A stretch of DNA of 64,000 bases from Legionellales bacterium (GCA_027486005.1 JAIXPZ010000060.1:3088-67087), one strand, 5' to 3'. Counted from the first letter of the stretch, positions 6,978 to 34,211 are shown. Notes: generated from the sequence alone by a model not told the origin. A program made the numbers and translations.

Positions 6978-7235
6978 GTGAGCGCTATAAATATGAACGC
7001 CTTTTACAACACGAAAGAAGCACGTAATCAGTTTAACCAAATCATTAACCATGTCATAGAAACAAGGGAATCGGTTTGGATCACCAAAGACAAAAAGCTA
7101 GCGGCAAAAATTGTACCCATTGAAATAAAACCACGGCAGTTAGGGCTGCTAAAACAATCAGACTTTTGGATTGCTGATGATTTTGATGACGTCGATGAAG
7201 AAATTGAAACCCTTTTCTACGGTGAAAAAGAATGA
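6978..7235 (+). CDS. Phd/YefM-type antitoxin (VapB-like)
   Basis: 85 aa, overlaps the downstream PIN gene by 4 nt. It is a paralog of the 29548..29802 product, sharing the C-terminal DDFDxxxxEIExLFxGE motif. Confidence 0.75.
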   Translation: MSAINMNAFYNTKEARNQFNQIINHVIETRESVWITKDKKLAAKIVPIEIKPRQLGLLKQSDFWIADDFDDVDEEIETLFYGEKE

Positions 7236-7615
7236 TTCTTTTAGATACGCACTATCTTATTTGGGCAATGTTTGAACCAGAAAAGTTAAGCACGCAAGCA
7301 CAAATTCTTTTGACAGATTCTGCAACACTCACTTTCTTCAGTGCAGCAAGTATTTGGGAAATAGAGATTAAACAGTGTAAAGGAAAAATACGTTTACCTA
7401 ACAATTTTTACGATAAATTGGAAGAAACAGGCTTTCTTGAGCTTCCCATCCATGCTGCTCACGCAACAACTACACGACATTTGCCTGATATACACAAAGA
7501 TCCTTTTGATCGCCTGCTTTTAGCTCAAGCAATTTATGAAAAATGGACCCTTCTTACTGCTGACGCTGTATTACTGCGATATCAACCCCATTACAGTAAA
7601 ATTACCCAAATCTAA
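7232..7615 (+). CDS. vapC: VapC PIN-domain ribonuclease toxin
   Basis: 127 aa; LLDThxLIW N-terminus, acidic PIN residues (E, D) and the C-terminal HKDPFDRLL motif. Paralog of 29165..29551. Confidence 0.85.
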   Translation: MILLDTHYLIWAMFEPEKLSTQAQILLTDSATLTFFSAASIWEIEIKQCKGKIRLPNNFYDKLEETGFLELPIHAAHATTTRHLPDIHKDPFDRLLLAQAIYEKWTLLTADAVLLRYQPHYSKITQI

Positions 7616-25052: not shown

Positions 25053-26897
25053 ATGCAGACAGTTGAGAACAATTCTCTGGAGCGATTATTATCCCCGCCT
25101 TCTGAACTCTCAAACAACAGCAAGAAACAACATTTAATTGTTGAACTTGAGCGCGCGAAAGAACTCCTTGAACAATTAAGTGGCAATCGTGATGAAAACA
25201 TTGCATCTCGAGAGAATAATTACATTGCTTGTGTCGGTTATTTTTTGTCTGCCTCAACTTCTCTATGGCTTGGCGGAGCTGCCTATTGTTTTTTTCAATA
25301 TAATTCCTCTAGCCACGGCATTTTTGATCTTGGAGTCCCCATAATCGCTGCAAAAATTTTTAGCGCATTTTTCACTGCAGGCGATTGGGTTAACAATAGC
25401 TTTGGCATTAGCCCAACAAATGACTCAGATAAATTAGCACTTTCTCATGTGGAGAGCGAACCAAGCCATATATTAGCAAAATTACGTTTGATTTCTAAAT
25501 ATATTGTAAACAACCCTGTAAACTTGGCGTTAATTGACATTCCTTTTTTTATTGCCTACTTCACTGGATCTTCGGCAAGTTTTTCTAGCATATTACCTTA
25601 TTTGTTACAGGCAAGTGGCCACCCCAAGTTTGGCACTTTGCCGTATTATAGTGTGATTGCCTTTGACTGTATTATCACGATTGCGCCCGGTTTAGTGTAT
25701 TATTATGCGTTCAATTCACGCCCCCTCGAAAAAACACAAACAGCATGGCAAGCGTTTAGAAGCAAACGCTGGGACGAATGCGACATCAATGTTTATCGAA
25801 TAGTTGAAGCACTTTGTGATAGCGCAGTTGTGATTTTTTATCGCTCAATATGGCTTGCTGGAATTTCGACAATATTTTTCGAAGCTTTAGAAATACCCAT
25901 TACGCCATCTCAAAAATTCTTTGCGACAATGGTTGTATTGCTTTGTGCGATGATCAATGTCACTCTGACGCGATGCGTTAACACCGCCGCTCCTTATTTT
26001 GACTATGATTTTGCCACTCTTTCAACGCAAGAAAAGAAAAATGCTCTAAACGACCTATCTTATAATGAACTTTATTGGAACTTAAATATTGTTTCAGGAT
26101 TAACGACTTCAGCGGGCATTGCCTTAATGACTTACTCGTCTATTTCAAAAAATAAAAATATTGCTTTACCTTTCGCTGTTGTATTGGGTTTATGTAAACT
26201 CTTTATTTCAATCATGGCACAACGTGACTTGGCCTCCTGTCAAAAAGCTTTACATAAAGATAGTAGTCACTCAAGCTCTCAAGTGCTAGCAGGAGATCGC
26301 AGGGAGATAGCAAAAAATGGTTTTGCCGCACTGGCCAATACCTTTAAAGAAGATGCGTGGATAGGGTGGTTTATTACCATTAGCACTTTGCTTGGTCGAG
26401 GAGCAAAACTGTCAGGTTTTGAGCACTTCACTGTATCTGTGTCAACTCTTGCTGAGATTGAATTATCATTTTTTGCGATGATTGCTCTGCTTCTTATTGT
26501 AGTGATAGCGAATGCACGCAATGAATTTAGAACCTACCGCCATATCATGAGCGAAATTATTTCTCAAAAAATTGCAGAGGCTTATGTCCAACATCATGCA
26601 GCGCCCGTTGATAGTGTGAATATACCTTTATTAGCTGACATCGAGTCCGCCGACAGCGAGTCCGCCGACAGCGAGTTCAACAGTGTGCAGACACCTTTAT
26701 CAGTCGGCAAGAAGTCGACCGACAGTGAGTGCGACGAAAGATTAGCTCCTAGTCGACCAGCTCAAACTGAGCCATTTAATTCAATTTGTGTTTTGTTTCC
26801 ATGGAAACTAACACTTTATTGCACAGGCATGATCGATACCACTCCTAACGAATTGGCGCGAGCAGTCGATGCAAGAATCCATGAGTTAACAACATGA
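25053..26897 (+). CDS. Polytopic membrane protein of unknown function with an acidic C-terminal tandem repeat
   Basis: 614 aa with ~10 hydrophobic segments, preceded by an AT-rich region. It contains a SADSE-encoding 15-nt repeat (26643..26672). No recognisable domain. Confidence 0.45.
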   Translation: MQTVENNSLERLLSPPSELSNNSKKQHLIVELERAKELLEQLSGNRDENIASRENNYIACVGYFLSASTSLWLGGAAYCFFQYNSSSHGIFDLGVPIIAAKIFSAFFTAGDWVNNSFGISPTNDSDKLALSHVESEPSHILAKLRLISKYIVNNPVNLALIDIPFFIAYFTGSSASFSSILPYLLQASGHPKFGTLPYYSVIAFDCIITIAPGLVYYYAFNSRPLEKTQTAWQAFRSKRWDECDINVYRIVEALCDSAVVIFYRSIWLAGISTIFFEALEIPITPSQKFFATMVVLLCAMINVTLTRCVNTAAPYFDYDFATLSTQEKKNALNDLSYNELYWNLNIVSGLTTSAGIALMTYSSISKNKNIALPFAVVLGLCKLFISIMAQRDLASCQKALHKDSSHSSSQVLAGDRREIAKNGFAALANTFKEDAWIGWFITISTLLGRGAKLSGFEHFTVSVSTLAEIELSFFAMIALLLIVVIANARNEFRTYRHIMSEIISQKIAEAYVQHHAAPVDSVNIPLLADIESADSESADSEFNSVQTPLSVGKKSTDSECDERLAPSRPAQTEPFNSICVLFPWKLTLYCTGMIDTTPNELARAVDARIHELTT

Positions 26898-26905
26898 TGG
26901 CAACT

Positions 26906-29152
26906 TTAAACTGCCGTCATGCTTTCAACCCGCTGAAATCCTTTCGGTAATTTGTTGCCTCTGCGGCCACGCTCGCCATGATAATGTTCGAGATCTTTTG
27001 GCTTTAACACTAATTTTCTTTTTCCAGAAAATAACTCTAATGATTGACCCGCATTAATAATTTGCATATCCGTCACAAACTCTTCACGTGCTTCAGCGCG
27101 TTTCGGATTAATACTAATCATTTTATTACCTTTGCCTTTGGAAAGCTCTGGCAATTCTTTTACAGGGAAAATTAACATACGTCCTTCATTCGTGATTAAC
27201 GCAATTAATGCAGAATCAAGATTCGACACAAGTTGCGGAACAAGTACTTGCGCAGCAAGTGGTAATTTTAATAACACTTTTCCAGCTTTGTTGCGTGAAT
27301 AAAGTTCTTGAAGTTTAACCATAAATCCATAACCGGCATCCGACGCAATAATATAATGTTGATTATCTGCGCCCATCATTGCTGCGATAAATGTCGCGCC
27401 GGCGGGTGGCGTAACATGCCCTGATAATGGCTCGCCTTGTCCACGCGCTGACGGCAATGTATTCGCCAGTAATGAATAGGCTCGCCCGGTACTATCTAAA
27501 AAAACCACTTGCTCTTGACTGCGCCCATAAACCGCAGATAAAAATGAATCACCCGATTTATAATTTAATACTTTGGGGTCAATTTCATGACCCTTGGCTT
27601 GGCGCACCCAGCCCATCTTCGATAAAATCACAGTCACCGGCTCTGAAGGCAACAAGTCAGTTTCTTTAATAATTTGCGCTTCTGCTCGCACAACTAATGC
27701 TGATTTTCGATTATCACCATATTTTTCTGCATCTTCTAACATTTCTTTTTTGATTAATGTCGTTAAACGCGCTTCTGATCCTAAGGTTTTCTCAAGCCCA
27801 TCACGCTCAGTCGCTAACTCATCTTGCTCGCCACGAATTTTCATTTCTTCAAGTTTTGCTAGATGACGTAATTTTAATTCTAAAATCGCTTCGGCTTGTA
27901 GATCTGATAAAGCAAAACGCTGGATTAAAATTGGCTTAGGCGTTTCTTCCTCACGAATAATTCGAATTACTTCGTCCAGATTAAGATACGCAATTAATAA
28001 TCCTTCTAACAAATGCAATTTTGCGAGCACTTTATCCAAGCGATATTGTAAACGTCGACGAACAGTGATTCTACGAAAAACCAACCACTCTTGAATAATT
28101 TCCAATAAATTTTTAACGCGTGGGCGGCCATCCAAACCAATCATATTTAAATTAATGCGGTAACTGCGCTCTAAATCGGTGGATGCAAATAAATGTGCCA
28201 TGACGCTATCAACATCAGTGCGATTTGATTTTGGAACAATCACCAAACGTGTTGGATTTTCATGATCTGATTCATCACGCAGATCTTCAATCATCGGTAA
28301 TTTTTTTGCGCGCATTTGTGCAGCAATTTGTTCTAATACTTTTGCGCCTGAAGTTTGATAGGGCAATGCAGTCACCACAATATCATTGTCTTCTCTAATA
28401 TAAGTTGCGCGCATTCTTAACGACCCACCACCTTTTCTATAAATTTCTGCAATTTCTGCGCGTGGCGTAATGATTTCTGCACGAGTGGGATAATCTGGCG
28501 CTGGGACATATTGCAAAACATCATCCAAAGTTGCTTTTGGTGTTTCTAAGACATGAACACACGCTGCAACTAACTCACGAATATTATGCGGTGGAATATC
28601 GGTTGCCATTCCCACGGCAATACCACTGCCACCATTTAATAAAATATTGGGCAATCGTGCCGGCAATTGCATCGGTTCATTCAATGTGCCATCAAAATTC
28701 GGCATCCAATCAGTGGTGCCTTGATCGAGTTCTTTTAATAACACGTCAGCATATTTAGAAAGCTTAGATTCCGTGTAACGCATCGCAGCAAAGGATTTTG
28801 GATCATCCGGCGAACCCCAGTTGCCTTGACCATCCACTAAAGGATGACGGTAGGAAAAATCCTGCGCCATCAGCACCATGGCTTCGTAACACGCACTGTC
28901 ACCATGCGGATGAAACTTACCCAAAACATCACCGACAGTACGCGCCGACTTTTTATGCTTAGCAATTGCACTCAATCCAAGCTCAGACATCGCATAAACA
29001 ATGCGTCGTTGCACAGGTTTTAGTCCATCGCCAATATGCGGCAACGCGCGATCTAAAATCACGTACATCGAGTAATCCAAATACGCTTTTTCGGTAAATT
29101 CATGTAAGGGTTGTTGTTCAACACCCTGAAGATTCATTAATGGTAAGGTCAT
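26906..29152 (-). CDS. parC: DNA topoisomerase IV subunit A
   Basis: 748 aa, collinear with E. coli ParC ([22 protein letters not shown]..., and the active-site region AAMRYTE). Confidence 0.93.
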
Positions 29153-29164
29153 TTTTTTCCTATT

Positions 29165-29551
29165 TTAAATCTTTTTTATAGGCCCAGGATACGCTGCAAC
29201 GAGCTTATCTTTGGTTAATAAAGTAATTCCTTCGACAGTTGCTTGTGAGATAAGTAATCGATCAAAAGGATCTTTATGTAATAATGGTAAACTATCAATC
29301 GAGACTACATGTTCACTCGTTATTCCCAACTCTTTATAACCTTCATCACATAATGCACGATGCAATACCCTTGCATCTACTTGAAAATTTTCACGCCCAA
29401 GACTGTTTTTGATTGCTATCTCCAAAAGACTCACAATACTGAAATAAATTTCATTGTCACTATCTTGAAGCAAGTCACAAACGGCACGAGACAAACGTTC
29501 TGGAGAATTCGCAACCCACAGTAACACATGTGTATCAAGCAAAAATCTCAT
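29165..29551 (-). CDS. vapC: VapC PIN-domain toxin
   Basis: 128 aa with LLDThVLLW and a C-terminal HKDPFDRLL motif. Paralog of 7232..7615. Confidence 0.85.
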   Translation of the reverse strand: MRFLLDTHVLLWVANSPERLSRAVCDLLQDSDNEIYFSIVSLLEIAIKNSLGRENFQVDARVLHRALCDEGYKELGITSEHVVSIDSLPLLHKDPFDRLLISQATVEGITLLTKDKLVAAYPGPIKKI

Positions 29552-29802
29552 TCTTCACCATGAAAAAGACGCTCAATCTCTCCCTGACTTATTGTATCAA
29601 AATCGTCAGGCACTTGCATTTGTCCTGCCATAAAACCAAGCTTACGCTTCTTTTTCTCAGGGGCTTCTAACCGCTCCACTTTAACCAAAGGTTTGCCGGC
29701 TTTTGCAATAATAAAAGGCTCACCCTTCACCGCCAAATCAATCAAGCGCGATAATTGTGTTTTTGCTTCATGAATATTAACCGTTTGCATAACGCGCCCC
29801 AC
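29548..29802 (-). CDS. Phd/YefM-type antitoxin
   Basis: 84 aa, overlaps vapC by 4 nt. Paralog of 6978..7235. Confidence 0.75.
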   Translation of the reverse strand: MGRVMQTVNIHEAKTQLSRLIDLAVKGEPFIIAKAGKPLVKVERLEAPEKKKRKLGFMAGQMQVPDDFDTISQGEIERLFHGEE

Positions 29803-29876
29803 ATATCAAACTAAGTTTATCAGACTTAGTTTACTTTATGGGCGCTAGAATTTCAATCCAACATATTCACTTCCTG

Positions 29877-31133
29877 TTATAAATTTAATACGGCATGTAC
29901 TAGAGGATCAACTATTTGATAGTAACCTTCTTCATTTTCATAAATATAATCCTTGTTTCTAAGTGCCGTCGCAGCTCTGGGTATGCTTCCAGGGACGATG
30001 GATAGGGCGTGACTAAACTCTTTAGAAAGCAACTCTTTTGTTTCTTTGTTTCGCGCAATAGCAAATAACAATTTTCTTTGGTTAACTGCCAATAAACTAA
30101 CCTCACCTTCTACGGACGTTCTGTTTTCCAATACGTAATTTTCCCATACGCTCAAAATTATCGTGTCTGATACGATCTCTTGAAAACTTAATAGGGTACA
30201 CAGTTTATTGACATAGTAAGGATGTCTTTGAGTAAGGCTGAATATGAGGTGAAGATCCTTATCGGATATAGAGGATCCCCATATTTCTTGAGAAACTGCT
30301 TGTATATATTTGATATAATGCTCGGGTTGAATACGTTTTAAGTAAATTGTGTGGCACAGTTTATAAAGCGGTCTTTTTCTATCTTGAAACATTTCTTTTA
30401 ACAAATAACGATTGCTACCTGAAAAAAGATAACAAACATGTTTGGATTCTTGCGCTGCATGACGAATAGCTGCCTCGATCCCATGATGACTTGTGGCTTC
30501 TGCAAGCGTTTGAAATTCATCCATGAATAGAACCAGTTTTTTTTGTTTCTTTACGGCAAGCTCTTCAAGCTTTTCCAGTGCTTCCGCAATAATATTAATG
30601 GGGCTTTTTTGTTTTTGTTCAAATTCAATTTCTATGCCAACCGTTTTAATGGCCGCGCGGATATGGAAGCTAGAAAAAAAATCTTTGGCTAGAGTTAAGA
30701 TTTTCTCTGGAGTATCTTCTATTTTACCTAATAGCCTGCCAATTCCATTAAGGATGGCGCTTGCGATGTCTTCTTCACTCAATTCTTTATAAAAATCGAT
30801 GTGTACATAGAGAAAATTGTTTTTATCTAAAACGTGAATGGCAAGACTTGTTTTTCCATAACGTCTCGGGGAAATCAAAAGCACAGGGCTGACGTTGTTG
30901 AGACAACGCAGTAGCTCTTCTTGTTCTTTTTCGCGATTACAGAAAGCCGCTCCAGCCGCTAGTTTTGTCGGAAAATAATCCACTTTTCTTGCTCCTATCT
31001 CTTGATTATACATATTGTATAATACAAAATGTATAACGTCAAATAGTCGAACAATCAGAGGCATATTATCATCTGGAACCTGCTGAAAAATCTCAAAAAT
31101 ATCGCTTTCACGATCACCTACTACGGTAATCAT
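29877..31133 (-). CDS. Arch_ATPase-family P-loop ATPase (ATPase_2 + DUF234-like C-terminal region)
   Basis: Walker A SPRRYGKTSL and Walker B LVLFMDEFQ. The characteristic RE(K/E)E...L lead-in (NREKEQEELLRCL) suggests the true start may be an internal Met (~31010). Confidence 0.55.
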   Translation of the reverse strand: MITVVGDRESDIFEIFQQVPDDNMPLIVRLFDVIHFVLYNMYNQEIGARKVDYFPTKLAAGAAFCNREKEQEELLRCLNNVSPVLLISPRRYGKTSLAIHVLDKNNFLYVHIDFYKELSEEDIASAILNGIGRLLGKIEDTPEKILTLAKDFFSSFHIRAAIKTVGIEIEFEQKQKSPINIIAEALEKLEELAVKKQKKLVLFMDEFQTLAEATSHHGIEAAIRHAAQESKHVCYLFSGSNRYLLKEMFQDRKRPLYKLCHTIYLKRIQPEHYIKYIQAVSQEIWGSSISDKDLHLIFSLTQRHPYYVNKLCTLLSFQEIVSDTIILSVWENYVLENRTSVEGEVSLLAVNQRKLLFAIARNKETKELLSKEFSHALSIVPGSIPRAATALRNKDYIYENEEGYYQIVDPLVHAVLNL

Positions 31134-31139
31134 TTGGAA

Positions 31140-31210
31140 ATTCCGATAAATTACTTTTTTTCTCTAACCATGTCTTTCAATAGCCAGCGCGTTTTTTGGC
31201 CAGCAACATT
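31140..31210 (-). repeat. Decayed ~70-nt duplicate of the parE 3' end (last 24 codons), a direct repeat of 32323..32393
   Basis: The minus-strand reading gives MLLAKKRAGY*KTWLEKKSNLSEF, compared with the authentic ParE C-terminus MLLAKKRAGDRKSWLEEKGNLSEL* at 32319..32393. That is ~80% nt identity over 70 nt. The two copies flank the Rpn gene. Confidence 0.65.
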
Positions 31211-31281
31211 GTCAGCGTTCAGAGCGTTATGAAATGTAAACATAGGCCGCAGTGGCGGGAGTCAAAAATCGATAAAATTTA

Positions 31282-32202
31282 TTATTCTTTCAAACATTCG
31301 ATTTCTTCTTCTGTCAACTCCGTCGCTTCAACAATAGTAGTAACAGAAAAATTCAACGTTAGCATTTTTCTTGCGATTTCTATTTTTCCCTCGACTTTAC
31401 CTTCCGCTTTACCTCTCGCCTCACCTTCCGCCAAACCTTCCGCTTTTCCTTCCGCTTTTCCTTCCGCTTTTCCCGCTTCTAACCCTTTAGTATACTTTTC
31501 CGACATCAGTGTTTTTTCTCGCCTTACTTGATCCCAATAACTTTCATAAAAAGCGAGTTCTGCTTGTGTGTAAGCGGATTCTTCCGCCAATTCCACCGCT
31601 TCGGCAATTTCAGGCACTTCGAGTAATTCGTGAGAGACCGTCTTGGTTTTTTCATCAATTTCACGTAAAAACCGTAACCATAACAGTCTTAATGTCTTTT
31701 CTTCCGCAGAATGAACAGGAAATTTGGGTAACTCAATAAAAATTAATTGAAGATGATCAATAATATCGCCATCCTGACCGCCTTTCTTAACCAGTTGATA
31801 ATCATGGTACCAATCCGGACTCAGCCTATCGTAAATTTCTGCAACTAACCCTAATCCATACACCGGTTGCAGTAACACATAGTCTTTTCCTTTATCCAGT
31901 TGCTTTACAAAAGCTTGGCTTGCACCAAAAAGTAAGCGCTGTTTAAAACTGTCTGTCCAATTCATCTGCATTTCGACGACAAAAGCCCTTCCCTTCGCAT
32001 CTTTGCACTTCGCATCAGCAATCGTACGATTGAATTCAGGAATTGCCGGCACTTGTTCGCTGGGCAAATACGTGAGTTCTACAATCGGACTATCTACGGG
32101 CAAAGGCAAAACAGCATTTAAAAAACTCATCAGCAAATGCGGATGATCGCCAAAAATCTTTTTAAATACCACATCGGCTTTCGGATCTAAATAGCGTGAC
32201 AT
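31282..32202 (-). CDS. Rpn-family recombination-promoting nuclease (YhgA-like, PD-(D/E)xK 'transposase_31')
   Basis: The N-terminus DVVFKKIFGDHP matches the E. coli RpnA N-terminus DAVFKTFMFTPE. The C-terminal tail has the family-typical short tandem peptide repeats (EGKAEGKAEGKAEG) followed by LTEEEIECL. Confidence 0.85.
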   Translation of the reverse strand: MSRYLDPKADVVFKKIFGDHPHLLMSFLNAVLPLPVDSPIVELTYLPSEQVPAIPEFNRTIADAKCKDAKGRAFVVEMQMNWTDSFKQRLLFGASQAFVKQLDKGKDYVLLQPVYGLGLVAEIYDRLSPDWYHDYQLVKKGGQDGDIIDHLQLIFIELPKFPVHSAEEKTLRLLWLRFLREIDEKTKTVSHELLEVPEIAEAVELAEESAYTQAELAFYESYWDQVRREKTLMSEKYTKGLEAGKAEGKAEGKAEGLAEGEARGKAEGKVEGKIEIARKMLTLNFSVTTIVEATELTEEEIECLKE

Positions 32203-32318
32203 AATCCTGGACCTCTTAATAATACACTAAACATTGTTTTTTATTATACAATACCACCTCACTCAAGCCTACTTCGTTTGCAGTTTGGGATATTATTAAT
32301 TTTCTGTTGAAGTACAGG

Positions 32319-34211
32319 CTATAATTCCGATAAATTACCTTTTTCTTCTAGCCAAGATTTTCTATCTCCAGCGCGTTTTTTAGCAAGTAACATATCCATA
32401 CGAGATTCTGTCAATATCGGATCATCCATGCTTAACCGCACTAAGCGCCGAGTATCGACCGCCATGGTGGTTTCACGTAATTGCAATGGATTCATTTCCC
32501 CTAATCCTTTGAAGCGTAACACATTTGGTTTGCCTTTTTTCTTTTCCGCTTCTAAGCGATCTAATATTCCTTGTTTCTCGGCCTCATCTAAGGCGTAATA
32601 CACTTCTTTGCCCATATCAATCCGATAAAGTGGTGGCATCGCAACAAACACATGACCGGCTAAAACTAACGCTCGAAAGTGTTTAACGAATAATGCACAA
32701 AGCAAAGCAGCGATATGCGCGCCGTCAGAATCTGCATCGGCAAGAATGCAGATTTTTCCATAACGCAATCCAGTGAGATCGGTTGAGTTTGGATCTACGC
32801 CAATAGCCACAGCGATATCGTGCACTTCTTGTGATGCTAATACTTGCGCCGAATCAACTTCCCAGGTATTTAAAATCTTTCCACGCAATGGCATCACTGC
32901 TTGAAATTCTTTTTCACGCGCTTGTTTTGCAGAACCACCTGCGGAATCTCCTTCCACCAAAAACAATTCTGTTTGCCTTGGATCTTGCGCAGAACAATCG
33001 GCCAACTTTCCAGGCAATGCGGGTCCTTGCGTGACTTTTTTACGCAATACTTTCATTGCGCTTTTTAAACGACGTTGCGCATTATTAATCGCTAATTCTG
33101 CAATTTTTTCACCCAAGGCGACATGCTGATTGAGCCATAAACTAAAAGAATCTTTAACCACGCCCGACACAAAACTCGCACATTCACGCGAAGATAAACG
33201 CTCTTTGGTTTGCCCTGCAAATTGTGGATCATGCAGTTTTACTGACAAAATATAACAACAGTTTTCCCACAAATCTTCTGCGGTTAATTTAACACCACGT
33301 GGCAACAAATTTCTAAATTCACAAAAATCGCGCAAAGCTTCTAATGATCCAGTACGCAAACCATTTACATGCGTTCCCCCTTGTGCGGTAGGAATCAAGT
33401 TGACATAACTTTCAGTTAACAATTCACCGCCTTCTGGCAACCATACAATGGCCCAATCCGCCATTTCTTTTCCGCCCTCGGCGTGACCTAAAATAGGCTC
33501 TACTGGCAAAAGCTCTAAACCATTCAGCGCATCTAATAAATAACCGGCCAAGCCCATTTCAAAATGCCATTCGACTTTTTCATTATGAATTTTGTCATCT
33601 AAAATGACTTTAAGCCCTGGGCATAATACAGCCTTGGCACGTAAAATATGTTTTAGCCTGCTGATAGAAAAGTTTGCAGAGTCGAAATATTTGGGCTCGG
33701 GCAAAAATCTGACACTCGTGCCAGTGTCACGCTTATTCACTTCTCCGATAACTTTTAATTCGGATTTTTTTGCGCCATGCTCAAAGCGCATGTGATAAAT
33801 TTTTCCATGCTGACGAATAGTCACTTCCAGCCATTGCGATAAGGCATTCACTACGGAAATGCCCACGCCGTGTAAACCGCCAGAAAATTTATAACTATCG
33901 TTGGAAAATTTTGCGCCCGCATGTAATCGCGTTAAAATTAATTCCACGCCCGTGACTTTTTCTTCTAAATGCACATCTGTTGGCATGCCACGACCATCAT
34001 CAGTGACCTCGACAGACCCGTCTTGATGAATAATCACCTCAATTTTCGTCGCGTGCCCTGCCAATGCTTCATCGACACTATTATCAATGGCTTCGCACGC
34101 CAAATGATTGGGGCGTGTGGTATCGGTGTACATCCCGGGACGTTTTTGTACCGGCTCTAATCCACTTAAAACCTCAATGGATTGAGCATTATAATTTTTT
34201 TCTGCCATCAC
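32319..34211 (-). CDS. parE: DNA topoisomerase IV subunit B
   Basis: 630 aa, collinear with E. coli ParE (IEVLSGLEPVQKRPGMYTDTTRPNHL...). Confidence 0.95.
   Translation of the reverse strand: MMAEKNYNAQSIEVLSGLEPVQKRPGMYTDTTRPNHLACEAIDNSVDEALAGHATKIEVIIHQDGSVEVTDDGRGMPTDVHLEEKVTGVELILTRLHAGAKFSNDSYKFSGGLHGVGISVVNALSQWLEVTIRQHGKIYHMRFEHGAKKSELKVIGEVNKRDTGTSVRFLPEPKYFDSANFSISRLKHILRAKAVLCPGLKVILDDKIHNEKVEWHFEMGLAGYLLDALNGLELLPVEPILGHAEGGKEMADWAIVWLPEGGELLTESYVNLIPTAQGGTHVNGLRTGSLEALRDFCEFRNLLPRGVKLTAEDLWENCCYILSVKLHDPQFAGQTKERLSSRECASFVSGVVKDSFSLWLNQHVALGEKIAELAINNAQRRLKSAMKVLRKKVTQGPALPGKLADCSAQDPRQTELFLVEGDSAGGSAKQAREKEFQAVMPLRGKILNTWEVDSAQVLASQEVHDIAVAIGVDPNSTDLTGLRYGKICILADADSDGAHIAALLCALFVKHFRALVLAGHVFVAMPPLYRIDMGKEVYYALDEAEKQGILDRLEAEKKKGKPNVLRFKGLGEMNPLQLRETTMAVDTRRLVRLSMDDPILTESRMDMLLAKKRAGDRKSWLEEKGNLSEL

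Follow-up and report, generated by a model that had tools for sequence, protein, structure and literature searches.

In the 64,000-nt stretch of DNA from a Legionellales bacterium that was analysed here (GCA_027486005.1 JAIXPZ010000060.1:3088-67087, called the window in the following), the intact genes of the two topoisomerase IV subunits, parE and parC, are separated by an islet of 3166 nt, in agreement with the cargo of about 3.1 kb that an earlier note on this DNA had described. The islet and both border genes are all encoded on the minus strand in the order parE, Rpn nuclease, ATPase_2 protein, Phd-VapC (PIN) toxin-antitoxin (TA) pair and parC (Table 1), and the identities proposed in the earlier note for the TA pair and the Rpn nuclease were confirmed by matches to PF02604, PF01850, PF12784 and TIGR01784. 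The GC content of the islet (0.35–0.42) shows no contrast to its flanks, scans of the islet for tRNA genes, Rfam families and terminators found nothing, and promoter-like sites were detected within it. The host is an uncultured gammaproteobacterium whose nearest named relatives are metagenome-assembled genomes (MAGs) of Coxiellaceae with a ParE about 72% identical. We consider it quite probable that the segment is a mosaic, a kind of 'junk-drawer' islet that arose by separate insertions into a short parE–parC spacer, with three autonomous modules (Phd-VapC, the ATPase and Rpn), each with a promoter-like region of its own, and two scars.

Table 1: Genes, repeats and other features of the parE–parC islet and its borders, with positions counted from the first letter of the window.
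Feature	Position	Strand	Evidence or remark
parE (topoisomerase IV subunit B), intact, upstream border of the islet	32319..34211	-	TIGR01055, 995 bits
DR-L, functional parE 3' end, upstream repeat copy	32323..32393	-	repeat family D3
Rpn cassette (promoter region and gene)	31274..32279	-	nucleotide match to L170
Rpn-family PD-(D/E)XK nuclease, 306 aa	31282..32202	-	PF12784, 1.1e-36; TIGR01784, 1.9e-32
Candidate internal open reading frame (ORF), RpnS-like small antitoxin, M233 to stop, 74 aa	31282..31506	-	ATG at 31506..31504
12-nt repeat tract (four residues, GxAE-type) inside rpn	31387..31482	-	repeat families D1, D2, D4
DR-R, decayed duplicate of the parE 3' end, reads MLLAKKRAGY*KTWLEKKSNLSE	31139..31209	-	in-frame TGA common to the sister MAG
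Probable remnant of an IS4-family transposase (28 residues)	31053..31138	-	NF033590 positions 135-162, E 1.1e-3
ATPase promoter-like site, TTGACG-17-TACAAT	31014..31042	-	10/12 consensus matches
Orphan ATPase_2 protein (ORC/Cdc6-like AAA+) with C-terminal winged helix, 368 aa, GTG start	29877..30983	-	PF01637, 2.4e-12
phd-vapC promoter-like site, TTGAAA-17-TAAACT	29828-29856	-	promoter scan
19-nt imperfect palindrome (29798-29816 / 29824-29842) overlapping the downstream side of the phd-vapC promoter	29798..29842	-	repeat family I3
Phd/YefM-type antitoxin, 84 aa	29548..29802	-	PF02604, 3.3e-9; TIGR01552
VapC (PIN-domain) toxin, 128 aa	29165..29551	-	PF01850, 8e-12
parC (topoisomerase IV subunit A), intact, downstream border of the islet	26906..29152	-	TIGR01062, 1150 bits

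Using a ParE search over 185,579 species representatives we compiled a collection of 80 loci. In 35 of them parC is located at most 10 kb from parE, and 28 of these 35 show a gap of about 240 nt or less, with tight gaps also among the Coxiellaceae MAGs (6 nt in L038, 111 nt in L003) and a close spacing in Nevskiales, Pseudomonadales and others. In a congener of the host (L172, ParC 93% identical) parE is followed by the gene of a 476-aa protein without Pfam match and then by parC, and none of the three modules is present at this parE–parC site. The homology between the window and L172 is interrupted from 32331 to 29168, the latter position being 16 nt upstream of the parC start; as different cargo is enclosed by the same two breakpoints in members of one genus, the site is a small variable hotspot. 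Thus, the tight spacing in the relatives and the other cargo in L172 bear out the view of the earlier note that the segment, 3.2 kb in size, is real inserted cargo, and the parE–parC pair was formerly contiguous. In an opposite scenario the lineage would have had the islet from its origin and the relatives would have lost or replaced it, a tight parE–parC pair then not being the ancestral state of the clade. It could draw on the nearest GTDB representative (L001, ParE 84% identical), where parC is missing from the 10 kb next to parE, on the Alteromonadaceae, in which both genes are unlinked, and on the GC content, which does not set the islet apart from its flanks. Nevertheless we regard it as extremely improbable, because the tight arrangement in 28 of the 35 linked loci reaches across Coxiellaceae MAGs, Nevskiales and Pseudomonadales, because unrelated cargo sits at the two identical breakpoints in L172, and because the duplicated parE end and the insertion sequence (IS) scrap described below are direct scars of insertion. 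In L001, which gave no information on the islet, the absence of parC within 10 kb downstream indicates that the link between both genes is broken or rearranged. This locus also shows an A-run frameshift near the parE 3' end (L001 11800-11880), being either an error of the MAG or a real change.

The insertion of cargo between parE and parC is not restricted to the genus of the host, as seven of the 35 linked loci hold some cargo. A Nevskia MAG (L064 11884-12581) has independently acquired a Pfam-confirmed Phd and PIN pair between parE and parC, 38% and 34% identical to the pair of the window. Both observations suggest that small cargo has landed at this junction repeatedly, with TA pairs present there in at least two lineages. 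An RHH protein and an unassigned ORF were found between the two genes in L065 (11989-12731), which had been a candidate for an RHH and PIN pair; since Pfam confirmed the RHH protein alone, it was not counted as a TA pair.

The earlier note had interpreted VapBC, the ATPase and Rpn as one composite defence locus. In an anti-phage system of this kind the ATPase might for example serve as sensor and the nuclease and the PIN protein as effectors. Such a system would fit to the four genes being co-directional and tightly packed without detectable terminators, to the protection against phage that Rpn proteins can confer (PMC10400941), and to the fold of the ATPase, which resembles STAND/NLR NTPases as well as ORC/Cdc6. 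PADLOC, which gave no match for VapC or Phd among the proteins of the window and one chance-level match for Rpn (C3a178, E 0.009), assigned the ATPase weakly to the candidate families PDC-S27 (1.8e-7, in the P-loop half) and PDC-S01 and to no others, but these matches are limited to the generic P-loop domain. In order to follow the ATPase family we compiled 88 ATPase loci with flanks of up to 6–10 kb and searched them by tblastn with VapC, Phd and Rpn of the window. No relative of VapC or Phd was found in the 88 loci, and a single Rpn lies in one of them at a distance of 5.5 kb. Additionally, ORFs were called beside 73 family members and the resulting 129 immediate neighbours were scanned with Pfam and PADLOC. 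These neighbours match 194 Pfam families, none of them more than five times (MFS, ankyrin and Toprim/DnaG being the examples), and PIN, Phd and PDDEXK_2 are absent from the 25 most frequent families listed; no PADLOC family occurs in more than two of the 129 neighbours and no enrichment was seen. Hence neither a recurrent co-localisation nor a match to a curated model of a multi-gene defence system was detected. The closest homologues of the ATPase are solitary in unrelated contexts, the Rpn cassette has an insertion footprint of its own and is found alone elsewhere, and between Rpn and the ATPase stand the IS scrap and a pseudo gene-end. Co-occurrence of the ATPase with VapBC and Rpn in other genomes had been set beforehand as a check of the composite locus, and as the trio was not seen outside this lineage, with each gene occurring elsewhere in unrelated contexts, the composite reading fails this check. 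One ATPase homologue (L084) does have RES-Xre, AbiEi/AbiEii and further orphan ATPases as companions in an island, but taken together the neighbourhood data largely refute a composite defence locus, and we consider it very improbable. With known modules and no evidence of cooperation the islet carries little weight as a defence system.

A mosaic of independent modules is also suggested by the ATPase itself. It was placed into the ATPase_2 family by a PF01637 score of 47.6 bits (cutoff 33.2), so that one half of its previous description as an Arch_ATPase/DUF234-type protein stands; the other half was lost, as the Pfam profile search gave no match to DUF234 (PF03008) at E ≤ 0.01 and the ATPase_2 plus DUF234 architecture is therefore not present. 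Its extent was also corrected, from 29877..31133 to the shorter gene in Table 1. The start at 30983 follows from 37 homologues of 367–405 aa, which align from an invariant start motif 'M(D/N)YFPT.LA.G.AFCNR', and from the nucleotide homology to the closest relatives, which ends at 31042-31052; the extra 150 nt run into the probable IS4 transposase scrap. The Walker A (SPRRYGKTSL) and Walker B (LF(M/L)DEFQ) motifs are invariant in the family alignment A1 (GKTS, DEFQ), and the AlphaFold2 (AF2) model (pLDDT 87) ends in a generic winged helix. Foldseek returned 2fna and 2qen as the top matches of this model (TM about 0.7, E about 1e-13), followed by the more distant folds of ORC/Cdc6, STAND NTPases and TnsC, and in a PDB sequence search 2fna was matched at 7e-8. 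With the archaeal proteins SSO1545 (2fna) and PABY2304 (2qen) the ATPase shares the AAA+ core, Walker A and B, the helical lid and the C-terminal winged helix, whereas it is only about 20% identical to them and has no DUF234 sequence match. In contrast to the archaeal ATPase_2 proteins it represents a bacterial family, named in Legionellaceae and in MAGs of Gammaproteobacteria, with the invariant N-terminal 'YFPxxLAxGxAFCNR'. The ATPase would most likely be an ATP-switched DNA-binding protein, and we found nothing that links it to defence. We know of no function for archaeal or bacterial ATPase_2 proteins of this kind, and a literature search for a link between PF01637 and defence found nothing relevant.

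The closest homologues P0001, P0002 and P0003 show 94–96%, 85% and 80% amino acid identity to the ATPase, and their loci match the window over 29860-31047 only, which corresponds to the ORF plus about 60 nt with the promoter-like site. These about 60 nt upstream travel with the gene in L081–L083 and L092, and the homology boundaries in L092 and L089 are as in the P0001–P0003 loci. The neighbours of P0001–P0003 are unrelated to the islet (S24 peptidase, DUF1761 and an RsmD-like protein), and a distant homologue (L087) is located among housekeeping genes. According to these boundaries the ATPase gene appears to move or persist as a promoter-plus-ORF unit without conserved partner. Solitary ATPase_2/winged-helix proteins form a large bacterial family whose genes move without a partner, and this argues against annotating its members as defence genes by guilt of association. 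The sole context resembling a defence or TA island that we saw for this family is L084 (831-12446), where a 55%-identical homologue is accompanied by two AAA_14+DUF4143 ATPases, a RES-Xre TA pair and AbiEi/AbiEii.

The Rpn protein scores well above the curated cutoffs (127 bits against 27.4 for PF12784 and 113 bits against 52.1 for TIGR01784) and belongs to a family with more than 6000 matches. D63, E77 and Q79 (E77-M-Q79) are invariant in 20 homologues and represent candidate catalytic residues. The first approximately 235 residues are highly conserved and are followed by a hypervariable repeat tract and a variable C-terminal domain, with about 2 to 14 four-residue repeats in the individual homologues of 69–97% identity (alignment A3). 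The same arrangement, in which a variable run of four-residue repeats precedes a small variable C-terminal domain, has been described for RpnL/RpnS, a gene-within-gene toxin-antitoxin and defence system of E. coli (PMC10400941). The window protein shares with it the COG5464/TIGR01784-type PD-(D/E)XK N-terminal domain, the repeats and the small variable C-terminal domain, and like RpnL/RpnS it is a patchily distributed single-gene cassette with an internal Met at a comparable position. A difference is that the E. coli Rpn proteins belong to Transposase_31 (PF04754) and the window protein to PDDEXK_2 (PF12784). Regarding the candidate internal ORF, a purine-rich AAGGCGAG precedes its ATG by about 11 nt, and most, but not all, close homologues have a Met at residue 233 or 234. 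By alignment, the window Rpn shows the sequence hallmarks of the RpnL/RpnS toxin-antitoxin type, the conserved nuclease core and the hypervariable repeats being in line with the earlier note, which had likened it to an E. coli toxic nuclease with an internal small protein. RpnA has been characterized as a DNA endonuclease (PMC5350276). The window protein would be a toxin with DNA endonuclease activity, which its own variable C-terminal part presumably keeps in check, and E. coli RpnP2 suggests by analogy that it may provide a phage defence of the abortive-infection type. A PDB sequence search with Rpn gave no meaningful match, and an exact-sequence look-up of the window protein and of P0127 found no match.

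At the nucleotide level, L170 is 78–79% identical to the window over the Rpn cassette only (31274-32279), and the flanks are unrelated. A different arrangement was observed in L176 (2885-6179), L177 (713-3961) and L178 (1-2340), where an Rpn-Fic unit forms a tandem direct duplication with a period of 2252–2266 nt. In L176 one Rpn copy has 288 aa and the other 308 aa, with unequal numbers of four-residue repeats. The array adjoins an NTase/HEPN-like pair, derives from one organism and belongs to the GROS21 metagenome series, as does the Rpn-less L172.

The first scar is a direct repeat, overlooked by the earlier note, that brackets rpn. Its copies DR-L and DR-R are 82% identical over 71 nt (blastn E 2e-13) and represent the functional end of parE and a decayed duplicate of it. 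A sister MAG (GCA_018061255.1, L169) is collinear with the window at 90% nucleotide identity over a stretch that begins upstream of parE, includes Rpn and closes with the pseudo parE end. There the repeat extends to 86 nt with 86% identity and the spacing of 1184 nt is the same as in the window; it consists of 71 nt from the very end of parE and 15 nt past the stop codon and reaches the equivalent of window position 32308. DR-R is followed in L169 by a different gene, after which the contig stops; that this gene could be the 476-aa gene of L172 was ruled out by comparison. A second contig of the sister MAG (L171) starts at window position 29841 and holds Phd-VapC-parC with 95% nucleotide identity. 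As both the Rpn insertion and VapBC are common to the sister MAG, they predate the split of the two genomes. The functional parE ends of the window and L169 are identical (0 differences in 71 nt), and the pseudo-copies show seven shared changes including the TGA, plus six and three lineage-specific ones. This pattern fits to one old event with subsequent neutral decay of the downstream copy. In the Rpn-less L172 a single parE end is present, from which we conclude that the duplication goes with the Rpn insertion.

Flanking direct repeats were also searched at 19 other Rpn loci (L170, L176-L177 and L181-L196 from IMG/VR), and none longer than 12 nt was found within 500 nt of the gene, so that the footprint is exceptional and not a general feature of rpn genes. 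According to Zhong et al. (PMC10400941) rpn genes have variable ends and neither terminal inverted repeats nor target duplications. In contrast to this survey the window rpn is flanked by a 71/86-nt duplication of the end of its target gene, and as the literature reports no footprints, such an insertion is a rare clue to rpn acquisition. We propose that the cassette would have entered at the very 3' end of parE, duplicating its last 71 nt and at least 15 nt downstream, with the upstream copy keeping parE intact and the downstream copy decaying as a pseudo-end. Selection would favour this outcome, as an insertion at the end of an essential gene would survive only if the gene end is restored. 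Entry assisted by homology to the parE end is the most likely route, either by a one-sided homologous crossover with an illegitimate second join or by Campbell-type integration of a circle carrying the parE end and rpn; a staggered cut of the transposase type is less likely.

The latter would make Rpn a true transposase and the 86-nt repeat a target-site duplication. Indeed rpn is the only gene enclosed by the repeat, whose ends are sharp and whose spacing of 1184 nt is identical in two genomes, the family was first annotated as transposase (TIGR01784), and RpnA cuts DNA as an endonuclease (PMC5350276). However, such a role is improbable, since none of the 19 other Rpn loci has a comparable repeat, the window rpn itself has no terminal inverted repeats, and 86 nt far exceed known target duplications. 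The variable ends, without inverted repeats or target duplications, across rpn genes and the fact that no autonomous PD-(D/E)XK transposase is known (PMC10400941) also argue against it. The footprint comes close to that of islets that integrate at the 3' end of genes and bring a replacement end (tRNA/tmRNA and protein-gene att sites, homology-facilitated illegitimate recombination), because here as well the repeat brackets the insert, the upstream copy is functional and a remnant is left downstream. Unlike these islets, the insert of the window is a single 1.1-kb rpn cassette without an integrase or recombinase gene, and we infer its mechanism only. One could go further and regard the duplicated parE end as the footprint of an rpn cassette that spread together with a piece of a neighbouring gene, as a circle or a transforming fragment, and integrated by homology, possibly helped by the RecA-independent recombination activity of Rpn. 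This more specific idea is rather doubtful, but if true it would for the first time explain in concrete terms how the members of a gene family with documented but unexplained mobility are inserted. A 17-nt inverted-repeat match (94%) between 31013-31029 and 32237-32253 (TATTGTATAATACAAAA / TTTTTTATTATACAATA) was noticed upstream of the ATPase and Rpn genes. Both sites are like extended -10 elements, and the match probably represents an AT-rich promoter similarity and not the end of a mobile element.

The second scar is located between DR-R and the ATPase. Residues 2-29 of the longer ORF (31047..31130) resemble the middle of an IS4 transposase, and the best tblastn matches of the scrap against plasmids are annotated IS4 transposases with 57% identity over 28/28 residues. 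The scrap truncates DR-R at the last parE codon and leads to an in-frame fusion with the region upstream of the ATPase. An IS4 element would later have landed or been deleted beside the parE pseudo-end, thereby leaving a scrap of 86 nt. No further copies of it were found in the window or in any fetched locus. With a remnant of 28 residues, no terminal inverted repeats and a direct repeat of 71/86 nt, the islet does not have the make-up of an insertion sequence or transposon.

Several points weigh against a mosaic of separate insertions in the form proposed here. The assembly of the sister MAG breaks exactly between DR-R and phd, where the ATPase might lie, so that several orders of acquisition would be compatible with the data. 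Polarising the differences between the repeat copies with L001 and L172 as outgroups gave mixed results, as at some sites the one and at some the other copy looks ancestral, and the stretch is too short to separate a duplication in situ from a donor and recipient relationship. The IS4 assignment stands on 28 residues with marginal E-values. The neighbour survey used a crude ORF calling and mostly ATPase homologues of 30–50% identity, and the absence of conserved neighbours would be compatible with a cooperation in this particular genome. Finally, every biochemical activity is assigned from family membership, whereas the identities of the genes, their insertion, the independence of the modules and the repeat are shown by the comparisons made here. 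Apart from this, the islet is an ordinary variable set of known selfish or accessory modules, and what is mildly novel is confined to the duplicated parE end bracketing the rpn cassette.

The third module, the Phd-VapC pair, corresponds to a type II VapBC system with a Phd/YefM-type antitoxin. PF01850 and PF02604 are both matched above their cutoffs, the small antitoxin gene precedes the PIN toxin gene with an overlap of 4 nt, and the acidic residues D6, E44, D94 and D114 of VapC are present, as read from the sequence. The palindrome at the promoter, another trait of such pairs, is likely an autoregulatory operator by analogy with type II TA biology. Accordingly composed pairs work as a PIN ribonuclease held by a labile Phd antitoxin, and the window pair would do so under autoregulation at the palindromic operator. 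It differs from usual VapBC pairs in its position alone, being wedged in the former parE–parC operon with the vapC stop codon 12 nt from the start of the essential parC. As no terminator was detected after vapC and the distance is only 12 nt, we infer that parC is probably co-transcribed from the TA promoter, to which read-through from upstream might add. An essential gene is thus placed directly behind a TA operon.

Another Phd-like/VapC pair, paralogous to the first one (VapC 41% identical), is encoded at 6978..7615 (+) of the window between the genes of an engB-like GTPase and a UvrD/Rep-type helicase. The stop codon of this second vapC overlaps the helicase start at 7615, so that a TA pair is again located directly upstream of a gene for a DNA enzyme, as in the case of parC. 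On the other side of parC, a multi-pass membrane protein of 614 aa is encoded convergently at 25053..26897 (+) of the window. Its place is taken by a 608-aa gene in the sister MAG and by a Bro-N-domain gene and an AhpC/Redoxin gene in L172, showing that it is a second variable spot flanking parC.

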